Positions 13,058-20,653 are shown, numbered from the stretch's first letter. The stretch is DNA of 64,000 nucleotides from Candidatus Latescibacterota bacterium (GCA_965200315.1 OZ241362.1:4512001-4576000), one strand, 5' to 3'. Made by a program: numbers and translations. The notes: generated by a model not told the origin, from the sequence alone.

Positions 13058-14590
13058 ATGAGCCAAGCACCCCGCCCCAACCTGCTTTACATCCACTCCG
13101 ACCAACACAGCCCCTACGTGGCCGGCTGCTATGGCGATCCCTTAGTCGAGACCCCCCACCTCGATGCCCTCGCCGAGCGCGGCGTGGTGTTCGACAACAC
13201 CTATTGCCCCTCGCCGATTTGTGTGCCCTCGCGGATGTCCATGCTCTCGGGCCGCTACCCCTGCGACAACCAAGTCTGGACCAACACCCACATCCTCGAC
13301 TCCGGCATCCCCACCCTCGCCCACGCCATGGGTGCTGGCGGCTACCGCCCGGTGCTCGTCGGCCGCATGCACTCAGTTGGGCCAGACCAACTACGCGGGT
13401 ACGCACAGCGGCTCGTCGGCGACCACGGCCCCAACCAACCCGGAGGCAAGGGCGTCGATCACGGCCAACTTTCGGGCACGGCCGGGCCGGGCCGCGTCAG
13501 CCTGCGCCTGTCCGGCCACGGCCAGAGTGCCTACGAGGTCCACGACGAAGACGTCACCGCCGCGACCGTTGACTACCTCAACCGCCTCGGCGTTGCCAAG
13601 CGCGCCGGCCAAGCCGCTGAGCCGTTTTCGCTCTCGGTTGGTTTCATGCTGCCGCACCAGCCTTTTGTCGCTCGCTTGCAAGACTATCGCTACTACTATG
13701 AAAACATCACCCCACCGCAAATCCCCGAACCCTTCGGCAACCACCTGCATCCCCACATCAAGTGCTGGCGTCAAGCCTGCGATATCGAGGAAGTCAGCGC
13801 GGAAGAGACCCGCCGCGCCCGCGCCGCCTATTGGGCGTTAGTCCACCGCATGGACGCGCTGATCGGCCAGATCGTAGCCGCGCTGCGGGAAAACGACTTG
13901 GAGGAAGATACCCTCATCCTCTATACGTCGGACCACGGCGAGCAGGTCGGCGAGCACGGGCTGTGGTGGAAGCAGACCTTTTACGAGGACTCGGTTAAGG
14001 TGCCGGCCATACTTACTTGGCCCGGGCGCTTGCCCGCCGGCACCCGTTGCGACCGGGTGATTTCTTCGCTCGACCTCAACGCGACCATGCTCGACGCCTT
14101 GGGCTGCCCGGCCCTGCCCCACTCGCGGGGCCGCAGCTTGCTGCCCTTGCTCGCGGCACCCCACAACGCCGCGTGGGACGACGTCGCCTTCTCCGAGTTC
14201 TGCCAAGACGCGGCCGGGGCCGGCGGCCCCTTCCCAGCAGAGGGCATTTTCCAGCGCATGATTCGGCGCGGGCCGTGGAAACTCAACTACTACCACGGCC
14301 AGCCCTGCCAGCTTTTTAACCTCCAAGACGATCCGCACGAGCGCTGCGACCTCGCAGCCGACCCGGCGCACCAAGAGACACTGGCCGCGCTCAAAGCCGA
14401 AGTCCTAGATGGGTGGGACCCAGAGTGGATCGCCGCGCGCATGGCTGCGTTCCGCGCTGACCGCTCCATACTAGCCGCGTGGGGCCGCACCGTCCAGCCC
14501 CCGGACCAGTGCCGCTGGAAGCTCGATCCGGCCATGGATTACCTCGACCGAGAGCAGCTCGACAACAGCCAGCGCAATACCAACAAATGA
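13058..14590 (+). CDS. Cys-type sulfatase (choline-sulfatase-like)
   Basis: PNLLYIHSDQH, CPSPICVPSRMSMLSG (CxPxR), YTSDHGE...HGLWWK. Confidence 0.93.
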   Translation: MSQAPRPNLLYIHSDQHSPYVAGCYGDPLVETPHLDALAERGVVFDNTYCPSPICVPSRMSMLSGRYPCDNQVWTNTHILDSGIPTLAHAMGAGGYRPVLVGRMHSVGPDQLRGYAQRLVGDHGPNQPGGKGVDHGQLSGTAGPGRVSLRLSGHGQSAYEVHDEDVTAATVDYLNRLGVAKRAGQAAEPFSLSVGFMLPHQPFVARLQDYRYYYENITPPQIPEPFGNHLHPHIKCWRQACDIEEVSAEETRRARAAYWALVHRMDALIGQIVAALRENDLEEDTLILYTSDHGEQVGEHGLWWKQTFYEDSVKVPAILTWPGRLPAGTRCDRVISSLDLNATMLDALGCPALPHSRGRSLLPLLAAPHNAAWDDVAFSEFCQDAAGAGGPFPAEGIFQRMIRRGPWKLNYYHGQPCQLFNLQDDPHERCDLAADPAHQETLAALKAEVLDGWDPEWIAARMAAFRADRSILAAWGRTVQPPDQCRWKLDPAMDYLDREQLDNSQRNTNK

Positions 14591-15252
14591 CCCAATAGAG
14601 CGGCTGGTGCCAAGACTGTCGGCAGCCAGACGTAAGGCGCATAAGTCGCAAACGTGCTAGGCGGCTCGTTGGTGAAGACGCGGAACTCCGTCGGCATGGA
14701 GAGGACCGCGATGACAATTGCCTCGGCCAGTAGCATTAACCCAAGCGCATTCCAAGCCCATATCGAATAAGAGCCTACTTTGCCGCGCCAGACCAGCCAA
14801 GCCATGGCCGGCGCAGTCAAGCCAGCGAAGATGTCGAGATTGAGTCCCTCGGACGTCATCTGTACCGGTACCTGCCCGGCTTGGTACATTCCTCGTAAGA
14901 ACACGGCGACCGGCACGCGGAAAAACTGGAAGCCAATCAGCCCAACCGGGCCGACCGCAGCCACTAGCACAGTCCCCACCCGCGAAAAGGCCGCACCGCC
15001 CGTTAGGATCATCAAGGCCGTGAAGAGAGGTAGCGAAAAGCCGTGCAGTGCGCCCGAGAGCGCAGCTAGTCCGGTCGCCATCAACCAGAGCATCGCTCCC
15101 ATAGCCGCCCGCATCGTCCACAGGTCGGCGGCCTGCCCTACCCGCTGGGCCGCGACGCGCATGGCCAGTACGGAGAGCGCCAAAACGCCCAAGACCGTGG
15201 CGAAAAAGAGCGCGTCAATGCGGAGGGGGACCTTGTCGAGCGCTAGTTCCAT
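14539..15252 (-). CDS. Hypothetical integral membrane protein
   Basis: About 7 hydrophobic segments; GFQFFRVPV, NLDIFAGLTA, PYVWLPTVLAP. Confidence 0.75.
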   Translation of the reverse strand: MELALDKVPLRIDALFFATVLGVLALSVLAMRVAAQRVGQAADLWTMRAAMGAMLWLMATGLAALSGALHGFSLPLFTALMILTGGAAFSRVGTVLVAAVGPVGLIGFQFFRVPVAVFLRGMYQAGQVPVQMTSEGLNLDIFAGLTAPAMAWLVWRGKVGSYSIWAWNALGLMLLAEAIVIAVLSMPTEFRVFTNEPPSTFATYAPYVWLPTVLAPAALLGHLLVLRWLLSSCSRSR

Positions 15253-15261
15253 ATCACTTGC

Positions 15262-16065
15262 TTATTCTTCGTCCCTTTCGCGCGCTTTCACCTCGTCCCA
15301 TATCTCGTCTAGGGCCGCTAGCGAGAGCGTGGCTACTTCCTCACCCCGCGCCAGCACCGTCTCTTCTAGAGCGCGGAAGCGGTGCTCAAACTTGGTGCTT
15401 GCACGCCTGAGTGCCTGTTCGGGATCTACTTTGAGGAATCGGCTGGCGTTGACTAACGAGAAGAGCAAGTCGCCAAACTCCTCCTCAACCGCCGCGGCCC
15501 CATCCGTCTCCCAAGCCTTGCGCACTTCGGCAAATTCCTCTTCGACCTTGTCGAGTGCGCCATCAACCTCGTCCCAATCAAACCCCTGCTGTGCAACTCG
15601 CGCTTGAATCCGATAGGCACGCATCAGAGCGGGCAGGTGCTTGGGAATGCCCTCCAGCAACGACGGCGCAGTTTCCCCGCGCTCTCGGCGCTCCTGCTTT
15701 TTGATCTGCTCCCAGCGGAGCAAGACCTCGTCGGCTCCGTCCGCACTCGCATCGCCAAAGACGTGAGGATGGCGACGAATCAGTTTATCGACGATGGCTT
15801 GGCCGACCGCCTCAATGTCGAAGCGCCCCCCCTCGGCCGCGATCTGGGCGTGGAACACCACCTGTAGTAACACATCGCCGAGCTCTTTGCAGAGCTCGGC
15901 GGCGTCTTCTGAGTCAATGGCTTCAAGAGCCTCGTACGCCTCTTCCAACAGGTAGGGCCTGAGCGTGGCATGCGTCTGCTGGCGGTCCCAAGGGCAGCCA
16001 TCGGGGCCGCGCAGATGCGCCATGATGGCAACTAATTCTGAGAACGTGGAATCGCTTTTCATCAT
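15262..16065 (-). CDS. mazG: Nucleoside triphosphate pyrophosphohydrolase MazG
   Basis: LRGPDGCPWDRQQT, EEAYE, ELGDVLLQVVFH, KLIRRHPHVFG, EEFGDLLF; tandem MazG domains. Confidence 0.95.
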   Translation of the reverse strand: MMKSDSTFSELVAIMAHLRGPDGCPWDRQQTHATLRPYLLEEAYEALEAIDSEDAAELCKELGDVLLQVVFHAQIAAEGGRFDIEAVGQAIVDKLIRRHPHVFGDASADGADEVLLRWEQIKKQERRERGETAPSLLEGIPKHLPALMRAYRIQARVAQQGFDWDEVDGALDKVEEEFAEVRKAWETDGAAAVEEEFGDLLFSLVNASRFLKVDPEQALRRASTKFEHRFRALEETVLARGEEVATLSLAALDEIWDEVKARERDEE

Positions 16066-16151
16066 TTTCCGCTTCTGGATTTTGTATGAAGAAAAACAAT
16101 AATAAGAAACCGCGCCCGCTACCGGCCCAAAAACCTTGCAACGCAGCTTAT

Positions 16152-16182
16152 GCAATCGATTGCTAAAGTATGTAACATACTT
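16152..16182. promoter_or_regulatory. Two adjacent palindromes (candidate operators) in the mazG/parA divergent region
   Basis: GCAATCGATTGC (16152-16163) and AAGTATGT-A-ACATACTT (16166-16182) in an AT-rich stretch. Confidence 0.45.
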
Positions 16183-16240
16183 AATTTTATAAGCTTTATG
16201 TGTTTTTTATGCTTAGCTGTAACCAAATTGGCACAAAGCC

Positions 16241-16268
16241 TTGACAGGCCATTGCGCCGATTTATATT
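16241..16268 (+). promoter_or_regulatory. sigma70-like promoter
   Basis: TTGACA (16241-16246), 16-bp spacer, TATATT (16263-16268). Confidence 0.55.
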
Positions 16269-16272
16269 GAAT

Positions 16273-16370
16273 GCAGGCGGTGATTAGGGCCTCCTGTACA
16301 ACTCCCCCGAAGTACAGTTCTGACGGCTCCTTTTACATTGAGAGTGGTCAGTTGGCCCGCTTGCTTTGTT
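16273..16370 (+). ncRNA. Candidate structured RNA (three-way junction) in the parA leader
   Basis: Hand-folded stems GCAGGCGG/CCGCUUGC, UGAUUA/UGGUCA, GGGCC/GGCUC, CUGUAC/GUACAG, CUUUUA/UGAGAG; followed by UUUGUU; G-U pairs favour the + strand. Confidence 0.5.
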
Positions 16371-16446
16371 GCTCATTAAGGCACGGTCCAAATTAGCTAG
16401 TTGAGCCTTTTTATAGGCTTCGACGAGGCAAGATCAAGATATAGGT

Positions 16447-17223
16447 ATGGGCAAAATCATCGCTATCGCCAATCAAAAAGGCGGGGTGGGCAAGACTACT
16501 ACGGCAGTCAATCTCGCTGCTTGTCTAGCCCTTTCCGGGTATCGCACCCTACTCATCGACTTAGACCCGCAGGCCAATGCCACTAGTAGTTGCGACGCCG
16601 AACTCGTCAGCGACTACGCCTCGATCTACGAGGTCTTGATAGGCCAGCTCAGCACCTCCTCGGCGACCTTTCCCACCTATATAAAGGACCTCTTCGTAGT
16701 ACCCGGACACGTCCGCCTCGCAGGTGCCGAAGTGGAGATGGCCGCTATGGTCGGGCGCGACAAGCGGCTGGCCGAAGCTCTGGGTCCGATAAATCGACAG
16801 TACGAATTTATACTTATTGATTGCCCGCCGTCCTTGGGCTTGCTGACTATCAACGCGCTGAGCGCGGCCCATTCCGTGCTCATTCCGGTGCAATGTGAGT
16901 ACTATGCCTTAGAAGGCGTGAGCAAGCTCAACGATACCATCCGCGTGGTGCGGCGCTATCTAAACCCCAATCTCGAAATCGAAGGTGTTTTACTTACCCT
17001 GTACGACAACCGCTTGCAGCTTTGTCGCCACGTGGCCCAAGAAGTGCGCAACCACTTCGGCGACAAGGTCTATCAGACGATCATCAGCCGCAACATTAGC
17101 TTGGCCGAGGCTCCGGGTTTTAGCCAACCCATCGCGCTCTACGACTCAGAATCGAGAGGCTCTAGCAACTACAGCAGCTTAGTTTCCGAAATCTGTGCCG
17201 CTAGGCCCTCTGTCTTGGCCTAA
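16447..17223 (+). CDS. parA: ParA/Soj family ATPase
   Basis: [46 protein letters not shown]. Confidence 0.93.
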
Positions 17224-17253
17224 TCCCCATCTACATTTCTGCATTGATTGTTC

Positions 17254-17281
17254 TTGACAATCGTTTGCATTGGCATATTAT
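17254..17281 (+). promoter_or_regulatory. sigma70-like promoter for the sigma54 activator gene
   Basis: TTGACA (17254-17259), 16-bp spacer, TATTAT (17276-17281); AGGGAGG RBS before ATG 17326. Confidence 0.55.
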
Positions 17282-17325
17282 ATTCACTTTTGCATTATAT
17301 ATCCAAAAAGAAAGGGAGGTTGTCT

Positions 17326-18354
17326 ATGTATTCTTGTACATCTGCGAACTCGGACGCGGCTACGCAAGTGGGCGCGTCCTCCCCCCGCTGTGCTGACCAT
17401 CCCGAATTTATCACCCAAAACGCCCAAGTCCGCCGCCTGCTAGCCCAAGCCGACCGGATCGCTGAGTCCCTAGCGACTGTACTCCTCACCGGAGAAAGCG
17501 GCACGGGCAAAGAAGTGTTGGCGAGGCGTTTGCACGGGCGCAGTCCAAGGCGCAGGGCCTCGTTTGTGCGGCTCAACTGCGCCTCGCTGCCCGAAGGTGT
17601 GTTGGAGAGCGAGCTGTTCGGGCACGAAAAAGGAGCCTTTACCGGCGCGGTGCGCCAGCGCTTAGGCCGCTTTGAGCTAGCCGATCGCGGCACCTTGTTT
17701 CTCGACGAGATTGGCGCGGCGGATATGCGCGTGCAACTGCGCCTGTTGCGCGTCCTGCAAGAACGCGAGTTTGAACGCGTCGGAGGCGCGGAGACCTTGC
17801 GGGTAGATGTGCGGGTCATCGCCGCCACCAACGTCGATTTGCGGGAGGAAGTCCGCAAAGGGGCCTTCCGCGAAGACCTCTTCTACCGGCTCAACGTCGT
17901 ACCGCTCAAGCTGCCGCCGCTGCGCCAGCGCAAGGGAGACATTCCCCTACTAGTCGAACACTTTATCCGCCGATTGGCAGCGCAAAACGGATGCAAAATT
18001 CGCGGGCTTGACGCCGCGGCCTTGAACCATTTTTTGGCCTATCCATGGCCGGGCAATGTGCGGCAGTTGGAAAACGCGCTCGAGCGCATGGTTCTCCTCG
18101 CAAGCGACAGCTTGTTGCGGGAAGAAGACGTGCCCGAAGAGATCGTCCACTGGCAGGATGAAGAAGAGCTCGATCTAAGCCAGCGCGGTTTTAGGGAAGC
18201 GCGGAACTCGTTTGAGCGGCACTTCCTCTGCAAAGCTCTGCATCGACACCGCGGGGTAATTTCGCAAGTAGCCGAAGACGTGGGTCTGTCGCGCAAAAGC
18301 CTGTACGCGAAGCTAGAACACCTCGACATCGACTACCAACACTACCGCACCTAA
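17326..18354 (+). CDS. sigma54-dependent enhancer-binding protein (AAA+ and Fis-type HTH) lacking an N-terminal regulatory domain
   Basis: GESGTGKE, LESELFGHEKGAFTGA, LFLDEIG, FREDLFYRLNV, WPGNVRQLEN, C-terminal HTH; AAA+ begins ~27 aa after the start. Confidence 0.92.
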   Translation: MYSCTSANSDAATQVGASSPRCADHPEFITQNAQVRRLLAQADRIAESLATVLLTGESGTGKEVLARRLHGRSPRRRASFVRLNCASLPEGVLESELFGHEKGAFTGAVRQRLGRFELADRGTLFLDEIGAADMRVQLRLLRVLQEREFERVGGAETLRVDVRVIAATNVDLREEVRKGAFREDLFYRLNVVPLKLPPLRQRKGDIPLLVEHFIRRLAAQNGCKIRGLDAAALNHFLAYPWPGNVRQLENALERMVLLASDSLLREEDVPEEIVHWQDEEELDLSQRGFREARNSFERHFLCKALHRHRGVISQVAEDVGLSRKSLYAKLEHLDIDYQHYRT

Positions 18355-18355
18355 C

Positions 18356-19414
18356 TCACGGGCGTGTGGCGAGCGCCCGGCGAAATTTCGCCATCTGGCC
18401 TTCGAGATAGGCCCGATGCTCGCCATCGGTCGGCTCGAGCGCGAGGGCTTGGCGCATAATGGCCATTGCGTAGGCATGCCGCCCCAACAGGTGCAACAAT
18501 TCCGCATAGGTATCCAAATAGACCGAGCTTTCCGCATCGAGTTTGACCGCGCGCATCGACAGATTTAGGGCATAGCTAAGGCGTTGGCCCTCTTCTGCAT
18601 AAGTCCAAGCCAAGTTGTTGAGGATCAGGGGGTCGTCTGGAGCACCGGCCAAGGCACGCTCGTAGTATTCAATAGCGCGGTCGGGCCGCTCGCGCTCGTA
18701 GTAGATGAGGGCGATGTCAACTACACTAACGACCCCGGCCGTCAGCGCTTGAGCAAAAGTGTGAGCGGCCCGCTCCGCAAGCCCTTGGCGGAGTTGGCAA
18801 TCGCCCAAGGCGAGGACGAGTTGCGGGTCATCGGGTTGAATGCGCACCGCCTCGGTGAGCGCGACTTCGGCCTCGGCGAATCGACCCTCGTCAATCAAAA
18901 GGCGGCCGAGTTCAATGTGGGCGAAGAGGTGGTGCGCGTCGAGTCGGGTGGCTTGGCGCAGTGCTTCTATGGCTGCGTCGGGCCGCTCTTGACGAGCGTA
19001 GAGCCAGCCCTTGGTTGCCCACAGCGACGCACTCTGCCCGTGGTCTGTGCGCAATTGCGCGAGGAGTTTTTCGGTTTGGGCGCAGCGCTCCTCTTTTTCG
19101 CAAATGTTGCGCAAAGCCCTGTACAGGTCGTCGTTGTCCGGTGCCAAGGCAACGGCTTGGCCGATCAGCTCTAGTGCGGCATCCACTTCGTCCAAGCCCA
19201 GTCGGGCGAGGGCAGCGATGAGCAGCAAGCGGTCATCCGGCCCGTCTTGGCGAATGGCCCGGCGGGTTTCGGTCAAGGCTTGGTCGTAGAGGCCGTCGCG
19301 CAAATAGGCGTACGCTAGCTGGGCGTGCCCGGCTCGATAGGTGCCGCACTGCGGGTTGCTAATGACAAACGCGCCGAGCAGGGCGCAACAGACGGCCTGT
19401 CTAGCAACGCGCAT
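18356..19414 (-). CDS. Tetratricopeptide-repeat protein
   Basis: Repeated TPR helices; LNNLAWTYAE, YLDTYAE. Confidence 0.85.
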   Translation of the reverse strand: MRVARQAVCCALLGAFVISNPQCGTYRAGHAQLAYAYLRDGLYDQALTETRRAIRQDGPDDRLLLIAALARLGLDEVDAALELIGQAVALAPDNDDLYRALRNICEKEERCAQTEKLLAQLRTDHGQSASLWATKGWLYARQERPDAAIEALRQATRLDAHHLFAHIELGRLLIDEGRFAEAEVALTEAVRIQPDDPQLVLALGDCQLRQGLAERAAHTFAQALTAGVVSVVDIALIYYERERPDRAIEYYERALAGAPDDPLILNNLAWTYAEEGQRLSYALNLSMRAVKLDAESSVYLDTYAELLHLLGRHAYAMAIMRQALALEPTDGEHRAYLEGQMAKFRRALATRP

Positions 19415-20653
19415 TCAGAACTCGTGGCGGTAGGAGCCGATGTGGAGGAGCAGACCGATGGCGAGGAGGTTGGACAGCAGCGAAGAGCCTCCCGAGCTAA
19501 GAAAGGGCAGTGGCAGGCCGGTGATGGGCATGACGCCAATGGTCATGCCAACGTTGATAAACACGTGAAAGGTCAGCATCGCAGCCAAGCCGAGGGCTGT
19601 TAGGCCGTAAAAGGCATTGTTGGCCATGGAGGCGATGTGCAGCGCCCGATAGATAAGCAGAAAGAACAGGCCCAGCACGATCAGGGCCATGACAAACCCC
19701 CCCTCCTCCGCGATGACCGAGAAGATAAAATCGGTATGAGCCGCCGGCAGGAACTGGTGCTTAGTCTGCGTACCTTCTAGCAGGCCCTTACCCGTCAGCC
19801 CTCCGGAGCCAATGGCGATCTTGGATTGGATGATGTTCCACCCGGATCCAAGTGGATCGCTCTCCGGATTAAAGAAGGTCATAATGCGGGCCTTCTGGTA
19901 TGAATGCAGAAAATTCTCCAAAAAGTACACCGTGAGCAAACATGCCGAGGTGTTGACGATAACCATGGAAATGGTCAGCCAGAGCCGGCGCATAAGATGG
20001 TGAATCAAGAAGGTGCTGCTGATGCCAAAGACAGCGAAGACATAGGGAGTATTCTGTTGCCACAGCGGCTCTAAGGAGCAGAAGACGCTGATGAGCGGAG
20101 AGATGACGAGGAAGATGAAGACCTTGCGCATCCCCGCCCAGTAAAGCATGGGGAAAAACGGCGCGCCAAAAGAAATCGCGGTTCCCAAGTCGGGCTGGCG
20201 CACAATCAAGATGATCGGCACCAATATGAGAATCAAGGCCCCGATAAAGCCACCCAAGGAGTTGACGTGTTCGGTGTTGCGATCACTCAGGTAGCGGGCT
20301 AGTGCTATGATGGTGGCGATCTTGGCCAGTTCTGAAGGCTGCAACATCACCGGCCCCAAGCGTAGCCAGCGAGTAGCGTCGCCCGTGCCCCACATCAACA
20401 CCGCGACTAGGCTTACAATGCTGAACAGGTACAGCATATACGCCACGCTGTAAATGACTTTTTCCGGGATATAGACGACGGCTATGGCCACGGCAAAGGC
20501 CAAAATTGCGAATTGGAGTTGCTTGATCCAAGAGTTCTGCACCGAGATAGAGTCGTTGTGATACGTAGCGCTGTAGATCGCGATGATACCGATCAGTACG
20601 GTGGCCAAAGTCGCAATCAGGAGTGGAACATCGAGTCTGCGAAGCAAGCGCAT
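19415..20653 (-). CDS. rodA: Rod shape-determining protein RodA
   Basis: RWLRLG..LQPSELAK, QPDLGTA, GWNIIQSKIAIGSGG, HTDFIFS, GLPLPFLS.GGSS. Confidence 0.95.
   Translation of the reverse strand: MRLLRRLDVPLLIATLATVLIGIIAIYSATYHNDSISVQNSWIKQLQFAILAFAVAIAVVYIPEKVIYSVAYMLYLFSIVSLVAVLMWGTGDATRWLRLGPVMLQPSELAKIATIIALARYLSDRNTEHVNSLGGFIGALILILVPIILIVRQPDLGTAISFGAPFFPMLYWAGMRKVFIFLVISPLISVFCSLEPLWQQNTPYVFAVFGISSTFLIHHLMRRLWLTISMVIVNTSACLLTVYFLENFLHSYQKARIMTFFNPESDPLGSGWNIIQSKIAIGSGGLTGKGLLEGTQTKHQFLPAAHTDFIFSVIAEEGGFVMALIVLGLFFLLIYRALHIASMANNAFYGLTALGLAAMLTFHVFINVGMTIGVMPITGLPLPFLSSGGSSLLSNLLAIGLLLHIGSYRHEF

Follow-up and report, generated by a model that had tools for sequence, protein, structure and literature searches.

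Results

The locus between mazG and a sigma-54 activator gene

The locus lies in a window of 64,000 nt (the whole stretch of DNA that was analysed) from a genome of Candidatus Latescibacterota, and the features described here are on its + strand. A sigma70-type promoter, already pointed out in the first-pass annotation of this DNA and consisting of TTGACA (16241-46), a 16-nt spacer and TATATT (16263-68), occupies 16241-16268 and agrees with the consensus at 11/12 positions. Every true homologue inspected has an equal -35/-10 pair in front of it, also where it was retrieved with a covariance model that contained no promoter. Within the 5.36 Mb of the window's own genome, the pattern TTGAC[AG]-16/17-TATA[AT]T occurs at 22 sites, the promoter of the leader among them. 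A likeness to a sigma-54 promoter, given by TGGCAC 5' of the -35 element, was dropped, as it is not conserved (TTGAAAC in many relatives). A 12-bp palindrome, GCAATCGATTGC, and an inverted repeat of 8+1+8, AAGTATGTAACATACTT, lie in the AT-rich spacer 5' of the promoter (16160-16200); same-genus genomes conserve the two only loosely, and divergent genomes lack them.

Downstream of the promoter and the leader lies a gene for a ParA-like ATPase of 258 aa (16447-17223), which matches Pfam AAA_31 and CbiA, belongs to the ParA/MinD superfamily and stays below every cut-off of NCBIfam. The designation parA, which the gene had initially received, is misleading. Instead of forming part of a chromosomal parAB operon, the gene is a paralogue of the true parA and has a sigma-54 activator gene, not parB, behind it; the sole ParB_N match of the genome is found at 1.558 Mb, next to a parA that is 57% identical to the ParA-like gene. 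The following gene (17326-18354) encodes a sigma-54 enhancer-binding protein with Pfam Sigma54_activat and HTH_8 domains, which has only ~55 residues before the AAA+ domain and neither a receiver nor a sensor domain. This activator gene has a promoter-like TTGACA of its own (17254-59), followed by an A/T-rich -10 in a layout like that of the leader's promoter, and the SD sequence GGGAGG is situated 6 nt 5' of the ATG at 17326. The TTG at 17248, where an ORF finder places the start of the activator gene, is probably not the real start. Leader, ParA-like gene and sigma-54 activator gene occur together in 27/27 loci. On the upstream side, the neighbour is mazG in the window and a different one in divergent relatives. 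The pair of ParA-like ATPase and sigma-54 activator recalls partner control of the FleN/FleQ type, and the ATPase possibly regulates the activator.

Searches for known RNAs came back empty at the locus. Rfam 15 at the gathering score yielded 0 family matches in the whole window, and ARAGORN yielded 0 tRNA or tmRNA genes. At E<=10, six Rfam matches were obtained for 16050-16460, all far below threshold; none of them overlaps the fold on the + strand, and 6C is not among them. The curated riboswitch aptamer models of Rfam gave no match, either at the gathering score in the window or at E<=10 over the fold on the + strand. The SRP RNA of the genome resides at 2.38 Mb, i.e., away from this locus, and the 6S model has no match anywhere in the genome. 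The initial impression that the RNA is not a tRNA, SRP RNA, 6S RNA or named riboswitch is in line with all of these searches, and the Rfam scan that the first-pass annotation had proposed leaves the element unassigned to any Rfam family. A hammerhead core, brought up by a likeness of GUGAUUA to it, was dropped because of the different topology and because the ribozyme models of Rfam gave no match. Our literature search retrieved no paper on this element and nothing on structured regulatory RNA in Latescibacterota.

Comparative support for a branched fold

The + strand of 16273-16370 adopts a branched MFE structure of -34.9 kcal/mol (z -2.26; 4/200 dinucleotide shuffles as good), and its reverse complement reaches -29.3 kcal/mol (z -1.13; 28/200 shuffles as good). 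Eight homologous cores show z-scores from -0.46 to -2.45. For full leaders, z amounts to -1.18 (window) and -0.38 (another leader), and the full-leader MFE of the window loses the Y domain, i.e., the P2 stem bearing hairpins P3 and P4. Folding energies alone are unremarkable, and energy by itself is weak evidence. In the comparison with shuffled controls that had been suggested beforehand, 16273-16370 of the window stands at z -2.26 (4/200), and homologous cores and full leaders are ordinary.

Helices were compared in a MAFFT alignment of 27 distinct homologues, which was built without structure, and in a wider set of 37 unique leaders. The pairing of the first-pass annotation scores -26.7 kcal/mol versus -33.9 kcal/mol for an MFE-like alternative. 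In the 27 sequences, the alternative has 85.6% of cells paired, which is reached by 0/500 shuffles (slid controls 36-51%), and 8/26 of its pairs change on both sides, which is reached by 1/500 shuffles; the earlier pairing has 3 both-side pairs, a number that 415/500 shuffles attain, and in all these shuffle tests kindred sequences may outdo shuffles even without structure. In the 37 sequences, whose alignment was fitted to the covariance model so that counts lean to the structure of that model, 92.2% of cells are paired and 14/24 pairs change on both sides (0/500 shuffles; slid controls 30-43%), with 3/5 in P2, 3/6 in P3 and 8/9 in P4.

The base of the Y domain is P2, GGGCC (16287-91) paired with GGCCC (16354-58), which spans 16287-16358, encloses hairpins P3 and P4 and has 98.4-98.5% of cells paired. 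Covariation supports this arrangement. Both-side changes in P2 affect 2/5 pairs in the 27 sequences and 3/5 pairs in the 37 sequences. Among the 27 sequences, one P2 pair is present as C-G (15), U-G (10) or U-A (2), and a second one as G-C (25), G-U (1) or A-U (1). The P3 hairpin (16294-16317) joins CUGUAC (16294-99) to GUACAG (16312-17) around the C-rich loop AACUCCCCCGAA (16300-11). This hairpin had been recognized correctly from the start, as both MFE and comparison agree on it, and its stem is of differing sequence in divergent homologues. P4 (16320-16351) is formed by CUGAC (16320-24)/GUCAG (16347-51) and GCUC (16326-29)/GAGU (16342-45) and has 93.8% of cells paired; both-side changes are seen at 8/9 pairs in the fitted alignment of 37 sequences and at 3/9 pairs in the MAFFT-only alignment of 27 sequences.

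The branched fold proposed at first thus survives in part. Its start at 16273 stands, but three of its five helices were mis-assigned. The former P2 (16281-86/16345-50), which belongs to the lower-scoring structure, the base of the former P3 (16287-91/16325-29) and the former P4 (16330-35/16339-44) all have no both-side pairs in the 27 sequences. The former P1 (16273-80/16357-64) does form in the window but is lineage-specific, with 64.2% of cells paired in the 27 sequences. The more general claim of an unannotated structured RNA after a sigma70-type promoter holds.

Independent MFE folds give the Y shape in 22/37 leaders. P3 and P4 of the sister genus share no sequence with those of the window, yet the Y shape is obtained by MFE in 4/5 of its leaders, which are among these 22. 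In 14/37 variants, 10 nt are deleted, so that P3 lacks its 3' half and outer P4 its 5' half; 13 of these 14 variants fold into a rod, the C-rich stretch lying in an internal loop. Because of these P3-removing deletions and the resulting rods, the three-way junction is common but not universal.

Candidate closing helices and the distal leader

Three registers fit a helix that would close the Y domain, none of them with convincing covariation. As both strands of the candidate helices hardly vary, pair counts cannot choose among the registers. The MFE of the window contains a local closing helix of its lineage, GCAGGC (16273-78)/GCUUGC (16359-64), spanning 16273-16364; this helix has 64.2% of cells paired in the 27 sequences, its outermost pairs are present in 3/27 and 8/27, and it lacks convincing covariation as well. 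GUUGCU (16368-16373) is a candidate partner of GGUGAU (16279-84), with 93.2% of cells paired and both strands near-invariant. The sister genus has AUUACC or AUUACU in its place, of which AUUACC differs by wobble-compatible transitions only, and GGUGAU/AUUACC pairing is found in 4/5 of the sister-genus MFE folds. A shifted register, GGCGG/UUGCU plus GAUU/RAUU, is 95.1% and 89.8% paired and equally compatible.

RNAalifold on full leaders pointed to the conserved strand UAGUUGAGCCU (16398-16408) as a candidate long-range partner of 16275-86. The long-range helix 16275-86/16398-16408 is 98.5% paired in 27 sequences and includes 1 compensatory pair. Hairpin C (16403-07/16416-20), which is 78.2% paired, overlaps the UAGUUGAGCCU strand, and the long-range helix and hairpin C are mutually exclusive; the changes in one relative (L022) are compatible with both. 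In the consensus fold of 32 same-genus leaders, no SD-sequestering helix was present around the start codon.

The distal leader of the window has some peculiarities of its own. Relative to 26 other same-genus leaders, ~24 nt are missing from it (16375-16385), the 5' half of a variable hairpin after UUGCUCAUUAA being gone, and it carries a tandem duplication, CAAGAU CAAGAU, directly before the start codon (16429-16440). In the majority of relatives, the leader ends in ~18 nt, UGGGGCAAAAUAUCGGU, that look like the opening codons of the gene, AUGGGCAAAAUCAUCGC (16425-16465), as though the start region had once been duplicated. In 4/5 loci of the sister genus (L165, L166, L167 and L181), the ParA-like gene apparently starts with UUG inside GCCUUUUGGGC, and in the sister-genus MFE the 5' GAGGC of the leader pairs with GCCUU immediately 5' of the UUG start.

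The 5' block and the C-rich loops

Adjacent to the promoter, the leader carries a near-invariant 5' block, AGGCGGUGAU (16275-16284; GAGGCGGUGAU in most relatives), whose columns are invariant in the 27 sequences and which is complementary to the 16S rRNA tail. The 16S rRNA of the same genome ends with the canonical GAUCACCUCCUUUCU. For the duplex of block and tail, -14.0 kcal/mol was calculated in the window; the median of the 37 leaders is -15.2, with a range from -9.6 to -19.4. Duplexes of this strength are reached by only 0.65% of 3851 crude ORF start regions, and in 6/6 leaders scanned the block is the strongest anti-SD site. SD motifs are in use in this organism, with a density peak at -15 to -7. 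A start codon 4-13 nt 3' of the block (GGUGAU) is found in 1/37 leaders. The start region of the ParA-like gene has a value of -5.0 against the anti-SD, near the genome median of -5.4; being about average, it shows no special need for help.

Runs of at least 4 C are present in 35/37 cores, located in the P3 loop, the P4 loop or both. Two such runs occur in 5/37 cores, one in 30/37 (window included) and none in 2/37. The C-rich stretch is retained in the variants in which the 3' half of P3 is deleted (14/37). No other single-stranded feature is as well conserved as the C-rich loop, which makes it plausible that this loop pairs with G-rich or Shine-Dalgarno-like sequences. GGGG at about -17 was considered as its cis partner and rejected: the window and six relatives have GAGG, and the segment is absent in L011 and L105.

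The element is the 5' leader of the ParA-like ATPase mRNA

The start codon of the same gene is located at a fixed distance 3' of the element in 37/37 unique homologues and in one metagenome copy, and sequence conservation extends up to the start codon. Contigs from RNA libraries (metatranscriptome, one study) contain leader and coding sequence unbroken in 4/4 runs; such contigs attest presence only, without strand, ends or level, and are compatible with DNA carry-over and with a processed short form. There is no cover between the mazG contigs, which end at 16038-16106, and the leader contigs. The latter start at 16151, 16220, 16281 and 16283, with adapter letters before 16281 in X3, and end at 17229-17236 in 3/4 runs; these contig edges were not taken as transcript starts or ends.

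The search for terminator-like sites returned 0 in 15900-16700 and 0 on the leader strand of 3 sister-genus loci. A long hairpin with a U-run, considered as a terminator in the sister genus, received no support from the terminator scan in 3/3 loci. UUUGUU is indeed present after the fold, as first described, but without terminator behaviour (0 terminator-like sites in 15900-16700). As the RNA contigs run into the coding sequence and no terminator was detected, the data argue for a 5' leader rather than a ~92-nt sRNA. The initial proposal of 'a small RNA or attenuating leader' is therefore narrowed down: the leader is the better supported part, through fixed gene linkage and bridging contigs, but a discrete ~92-95-nt sRNA and attenuation are unsupported in view of the missing terminator. 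The element is a 5' leader of ~175 nt, roughly 16273-16446, of the ParA-like ATPase mRNA.

Distribution of the leader

By DNA search, the region was found in 21/24 other same-genus genomes and in 0/16 genomes from three further families within the class. R1, a covariance model built on the core of the element, detected one copy in the window's own genome. Among 151 genomes drawn evenly from the phylum, R1 had matches in the own genome, in 21/21 other same-genus genomes and in 3/8 genomes of the sister genus (g11), and in 0/121 of the remaining genomes. With a second model (R2), applied to 76 genomes of the family, the element was recovered from 30/30 genomes of the same genus and 5/8 of the sister genus, and conservation in orthologous regions, which the first-pass annotation had named as a touchstone, is thereby seen. 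Weak matches in two further genera and extra ones in G005 and G162 (E 0.02-0.54) are without promoter and gene.

The total homologue set comprises 37 distinct leaders and one metagenome copy. True matches of the pattern scan are records of Candidatus Latescibacterota/Latescibacteria, two of them titled Gemmatimonadetes MAG. The 120 matches of a degenerate pattern scan were mostly GATGA variants within coding sequence of unrelated phyla and were discarded as chance; only matches of the GATTAG type with a promoter were homologues. In the metagenome pattern scan, 1/80 loci fetched (L255) fits the model and represents a more divergent copy, the rest being chance. To judge from these searches, the element is so far confined to two genera of one family. 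Two different copies of leader and gene are located on two contigs (L022/L179 and L182) of G018, a genome that is 58% complete, which may reflect a mixed bin rather than a true duplication.

Discussion

We tentatively propose that the element is a cis-acting leader which sets mRNA stability and translation of the ParA-like gene, a reading that we rate a little short of probable. The near-consensus sigma70-type promoter would fire a few bases 5' of the near-invariant block GAGGCGGUGAU, whose complementarity to the 16S rRNA tail of the organism is almost perfect. The Y domain comes next, with the P2 stem bearing P3 and P4 and displaying one or two C-rich loops (CUCCCC), followed by a variable hairpin region and then directly by the start codon. 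The 5' block may either be part of a closing helix, for which GUUGCU, AUUACC or the conserved UGAUUGAGCC strand are candidate partners, or be occupied by a 30S subunit without initiation. A paired or ribosome-occupied 5' end could, together with the Y domain, shield the mRNA from 5'-end-dependent decay by RNase E/G, and this shielding would set the yield of ParA-like protein from the strong promoter. The C-rich loops, in turn, might hold a G-rich sequence. In this scheme, conservation, the pairing of P2, P3 and P4, the gene linkage, the joint presence of leader and coding sequence in RNA-derived contigs and the 16S rRNA complementarity are observed, and we infer 30S binding, protection from decay, any switching of helices and the partner of the C-rich loops.

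Other explanations have to be weighed against the cis-acting leader. The leader, or a 5' fragment of it generated by processing or premature termination, could act in trans, its C-rich loops repressing G-rich RBSs, with the ParA-like gene being merely read through. A C-rich single strand that is kept when all around it changes (at least 4 C in 35/37 cores) is what such an RNA would display, its promoter as one of only 22 such sites in 5.36 Mb fits an abundant RNA, and the adjacent activator gene has the SD GGGAGG; the 6C sRNA, as set out in sections of PMC6486639, acts on G-rich RBSs through two C-rich loops. We nevertheless consider action in trans unlikely: there is no terminator-like site after the Y domain, RNA contigs enter the coding sequence in 4/4 runs, conservation reaches up to the start codon, there is no Rfam 6C match even at E<=10, and C-rich loops fit almost any SD, which renders specificity doubtful. 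It appears rather improbable that the Y domain does the sensing in a riboswitch or protein-binding leader of an undescribed type, in which a ligand or protein at the junction would pick between the helix of 5' block and long-range strand and hairpin C and in this way set ParA-like expression. No match to a known class, no terminator and no SD-sequestering platform was found, which weighs against such a switch, as do the dispensability of P3 in 14/37, loops that conserve composition and not tertiary-contact motifs, a narrow distribution (two genera) and a regulated gene that hints at no ligand. In favour of a switch are a three-way junction whose junction-proximal strand is conserved, a linker that varies, a fixed 5' UTR position and conserved pairings that exclude each other (98.5% for the long-range helix, 78.2% for hairpin C) and both fit the changes in L022.

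Conservation could also act at the level of DNA, with +1 to +20 serving as an operator or an initial-transcribed-sequence element of the strong promoter and the fold being incidental. The most conserved part indeed abuts the promoter and barely varies, and the energy z-scores are ordinary. However, both-side changes keep P2, P3 and P4 paired across two genera, and many substitutions retain pairing through G-U on the + strand alone, e.g., C-G, U-G and U-A at one P2 pair. Moreover, the + strand folds better than the - strand and no inverted repeat is seen in the block, so that we regard this explanation as quite improbable. Hardly credible is the idea that the SD-like block serves a short upstream ORF, i.e., a leader peptide, starting from the conserved GUG. 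In nearly every leader, this GUG (AUG in L182) follows GAGG at a distance of 2 nt, and in the window an ORF of 41 codons overlaps the leader at 16271-16396. A gap of 2 nt to the start codon is, however, too short for a functional SD, and a start codon 4-13 nt after GGUGAU is found in only 1/37 leaders. Indels of 1 and 10 nt put the overlapping ORF into different frames in close relatives, and neither its length nor its sequence is conserved, so that the block does not serve a conserved small ORF as its SD.

Among known RNAs, the 6C RNA of Actinobacteria, which we take to be Rfam RF01066, is likewise a compact RNA with conserved C-rich hairpin loops, and divergent homologues of the leader carry two C-rich loops, two runs of at least 4 C being present in 5/37 cores and one in 30/37. 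Sections of PMC6486639 and PMC5014011 describe that the C-rich hairpin loops of 6C bind G-rich ribosome-binding sites without a chaperone and that 6C has a strong housekeeping promoter; its overexpression leads to elongated cells, as reported in parts of PMC6486639. In contrast to 6C, the leader has no match to the covariance model, stems from a different phylum and lies inside a 5' UTR without terminator. Its hairpins are placed on a common stem as a three-way junction, unlike in 6C, and the window copy exposes one C-rich loop. RsaE/RoxS are further sRNAs with C-rich loops. For Xanthomonas sX13, recognition of G-rich mRNA sites by C-rich loops is described in parts of PMC3771888. Unlike the leader, sX13 and its kin are stand-alone sRNA genes, and they have no sequence or model similarity to it.

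The cis-acting leader that we favour resembles STAB-SD of Bacillus thuringiensis cry3A, which sections of PMC4113751 describe as a 5' mRNA stabiliser that pairs with the 3' end of 16S rRNA and starts no translation. The SD-like 5' block of the leader is similarly complementary to the 16S rRNA 3' end (-14.0 in the window, median -15.2), and a start codon at SD distance is missing in all but 1/37 leaders. STAB-SD, however, blocks the 5'-3' exonuclease RNase J1, whereas in this genome only RNase E/G was found; a search for RNase J (TIGR00649) in the own genome, a single contig that is 94.7% complete, gave 0 matches. As RNase J is the enzyme blocked there, this negative search counts against the classic STAB-SD mechanism. 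Furthermore, the block of the leader is joined to a conserved branched domain, which is not the case for STAB-SD, and stabilisation is here a candidate function. Y-shaped riboswitch aptamers lie in 5' UTRs and combine a three-way junction on a closing helix with competing downstream helices. The leader resembles them in its place in the 5' UTR, its three-way junction and its competing downstream helices, and differs from them in having no Rfam match and one arm that is dispensable in 14/37. As to an expression platform, the scans returned 0 terminator-like sites on the leader strand and no SD-sequestering helix, next to competing helices further upstream.

The element is, in our view, a new candidate motif among RNAs of a generally familiar type, and its fold draws support from comparison rather than from energy. 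Comparative support from two genera, the linkage to one gene and two unusual sequence features give a concrete starting point for testing how an uncultured lineage exerts post-transcriptional control. If the C-rich loops were to act in trans, they would represent an independent invention of the 6C/sX13 strategy within a 5' UTR. An improbable, more far-reaching version is a dual-function riboregulator of an undescribed kind, in which 5' block and Y domain would act as sensors of 30S availability or of a small signal and gate the module of ParA-like ATPase and sigma-54 activator, the C-rich loops additionally acting in trans on G-rich RBSs in the manner of 6C; if true, it would be the first functional RNA class defined in uncultured Latescibacterota. 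The annotation context is corrected as well, as the regulated gene encodes an orphan ParA-like ATPase and has the gene of a sigma-54 activator without sensor domain as its partner, and this gene pair deserves study in itself.

The wider surroundings of the locus show one further feature. GC skew flips its sign at 14000-20000 of the window (4.525-4.530 Mb of the genome), which corresponds to a local minimum of the cumulative skew; the global minimum is ambiguous, with the genome-wide curve being flat from 3.0 to 4.6 Mb. The idea of a replication origin or RNA primer was rejected, as no DnaA box (<=1 mismatch) lies near the locus. DnaA boxes with <=1 mismatch number 7 in the window versus 6.1 expected, and dnaA is located at 2.96 Mb, 1.57 Mb from the locus, which counts against an origin here. 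The GC-skew pattern and the distant dnaA together suggest a rearrangement or an unusual replichore layout.
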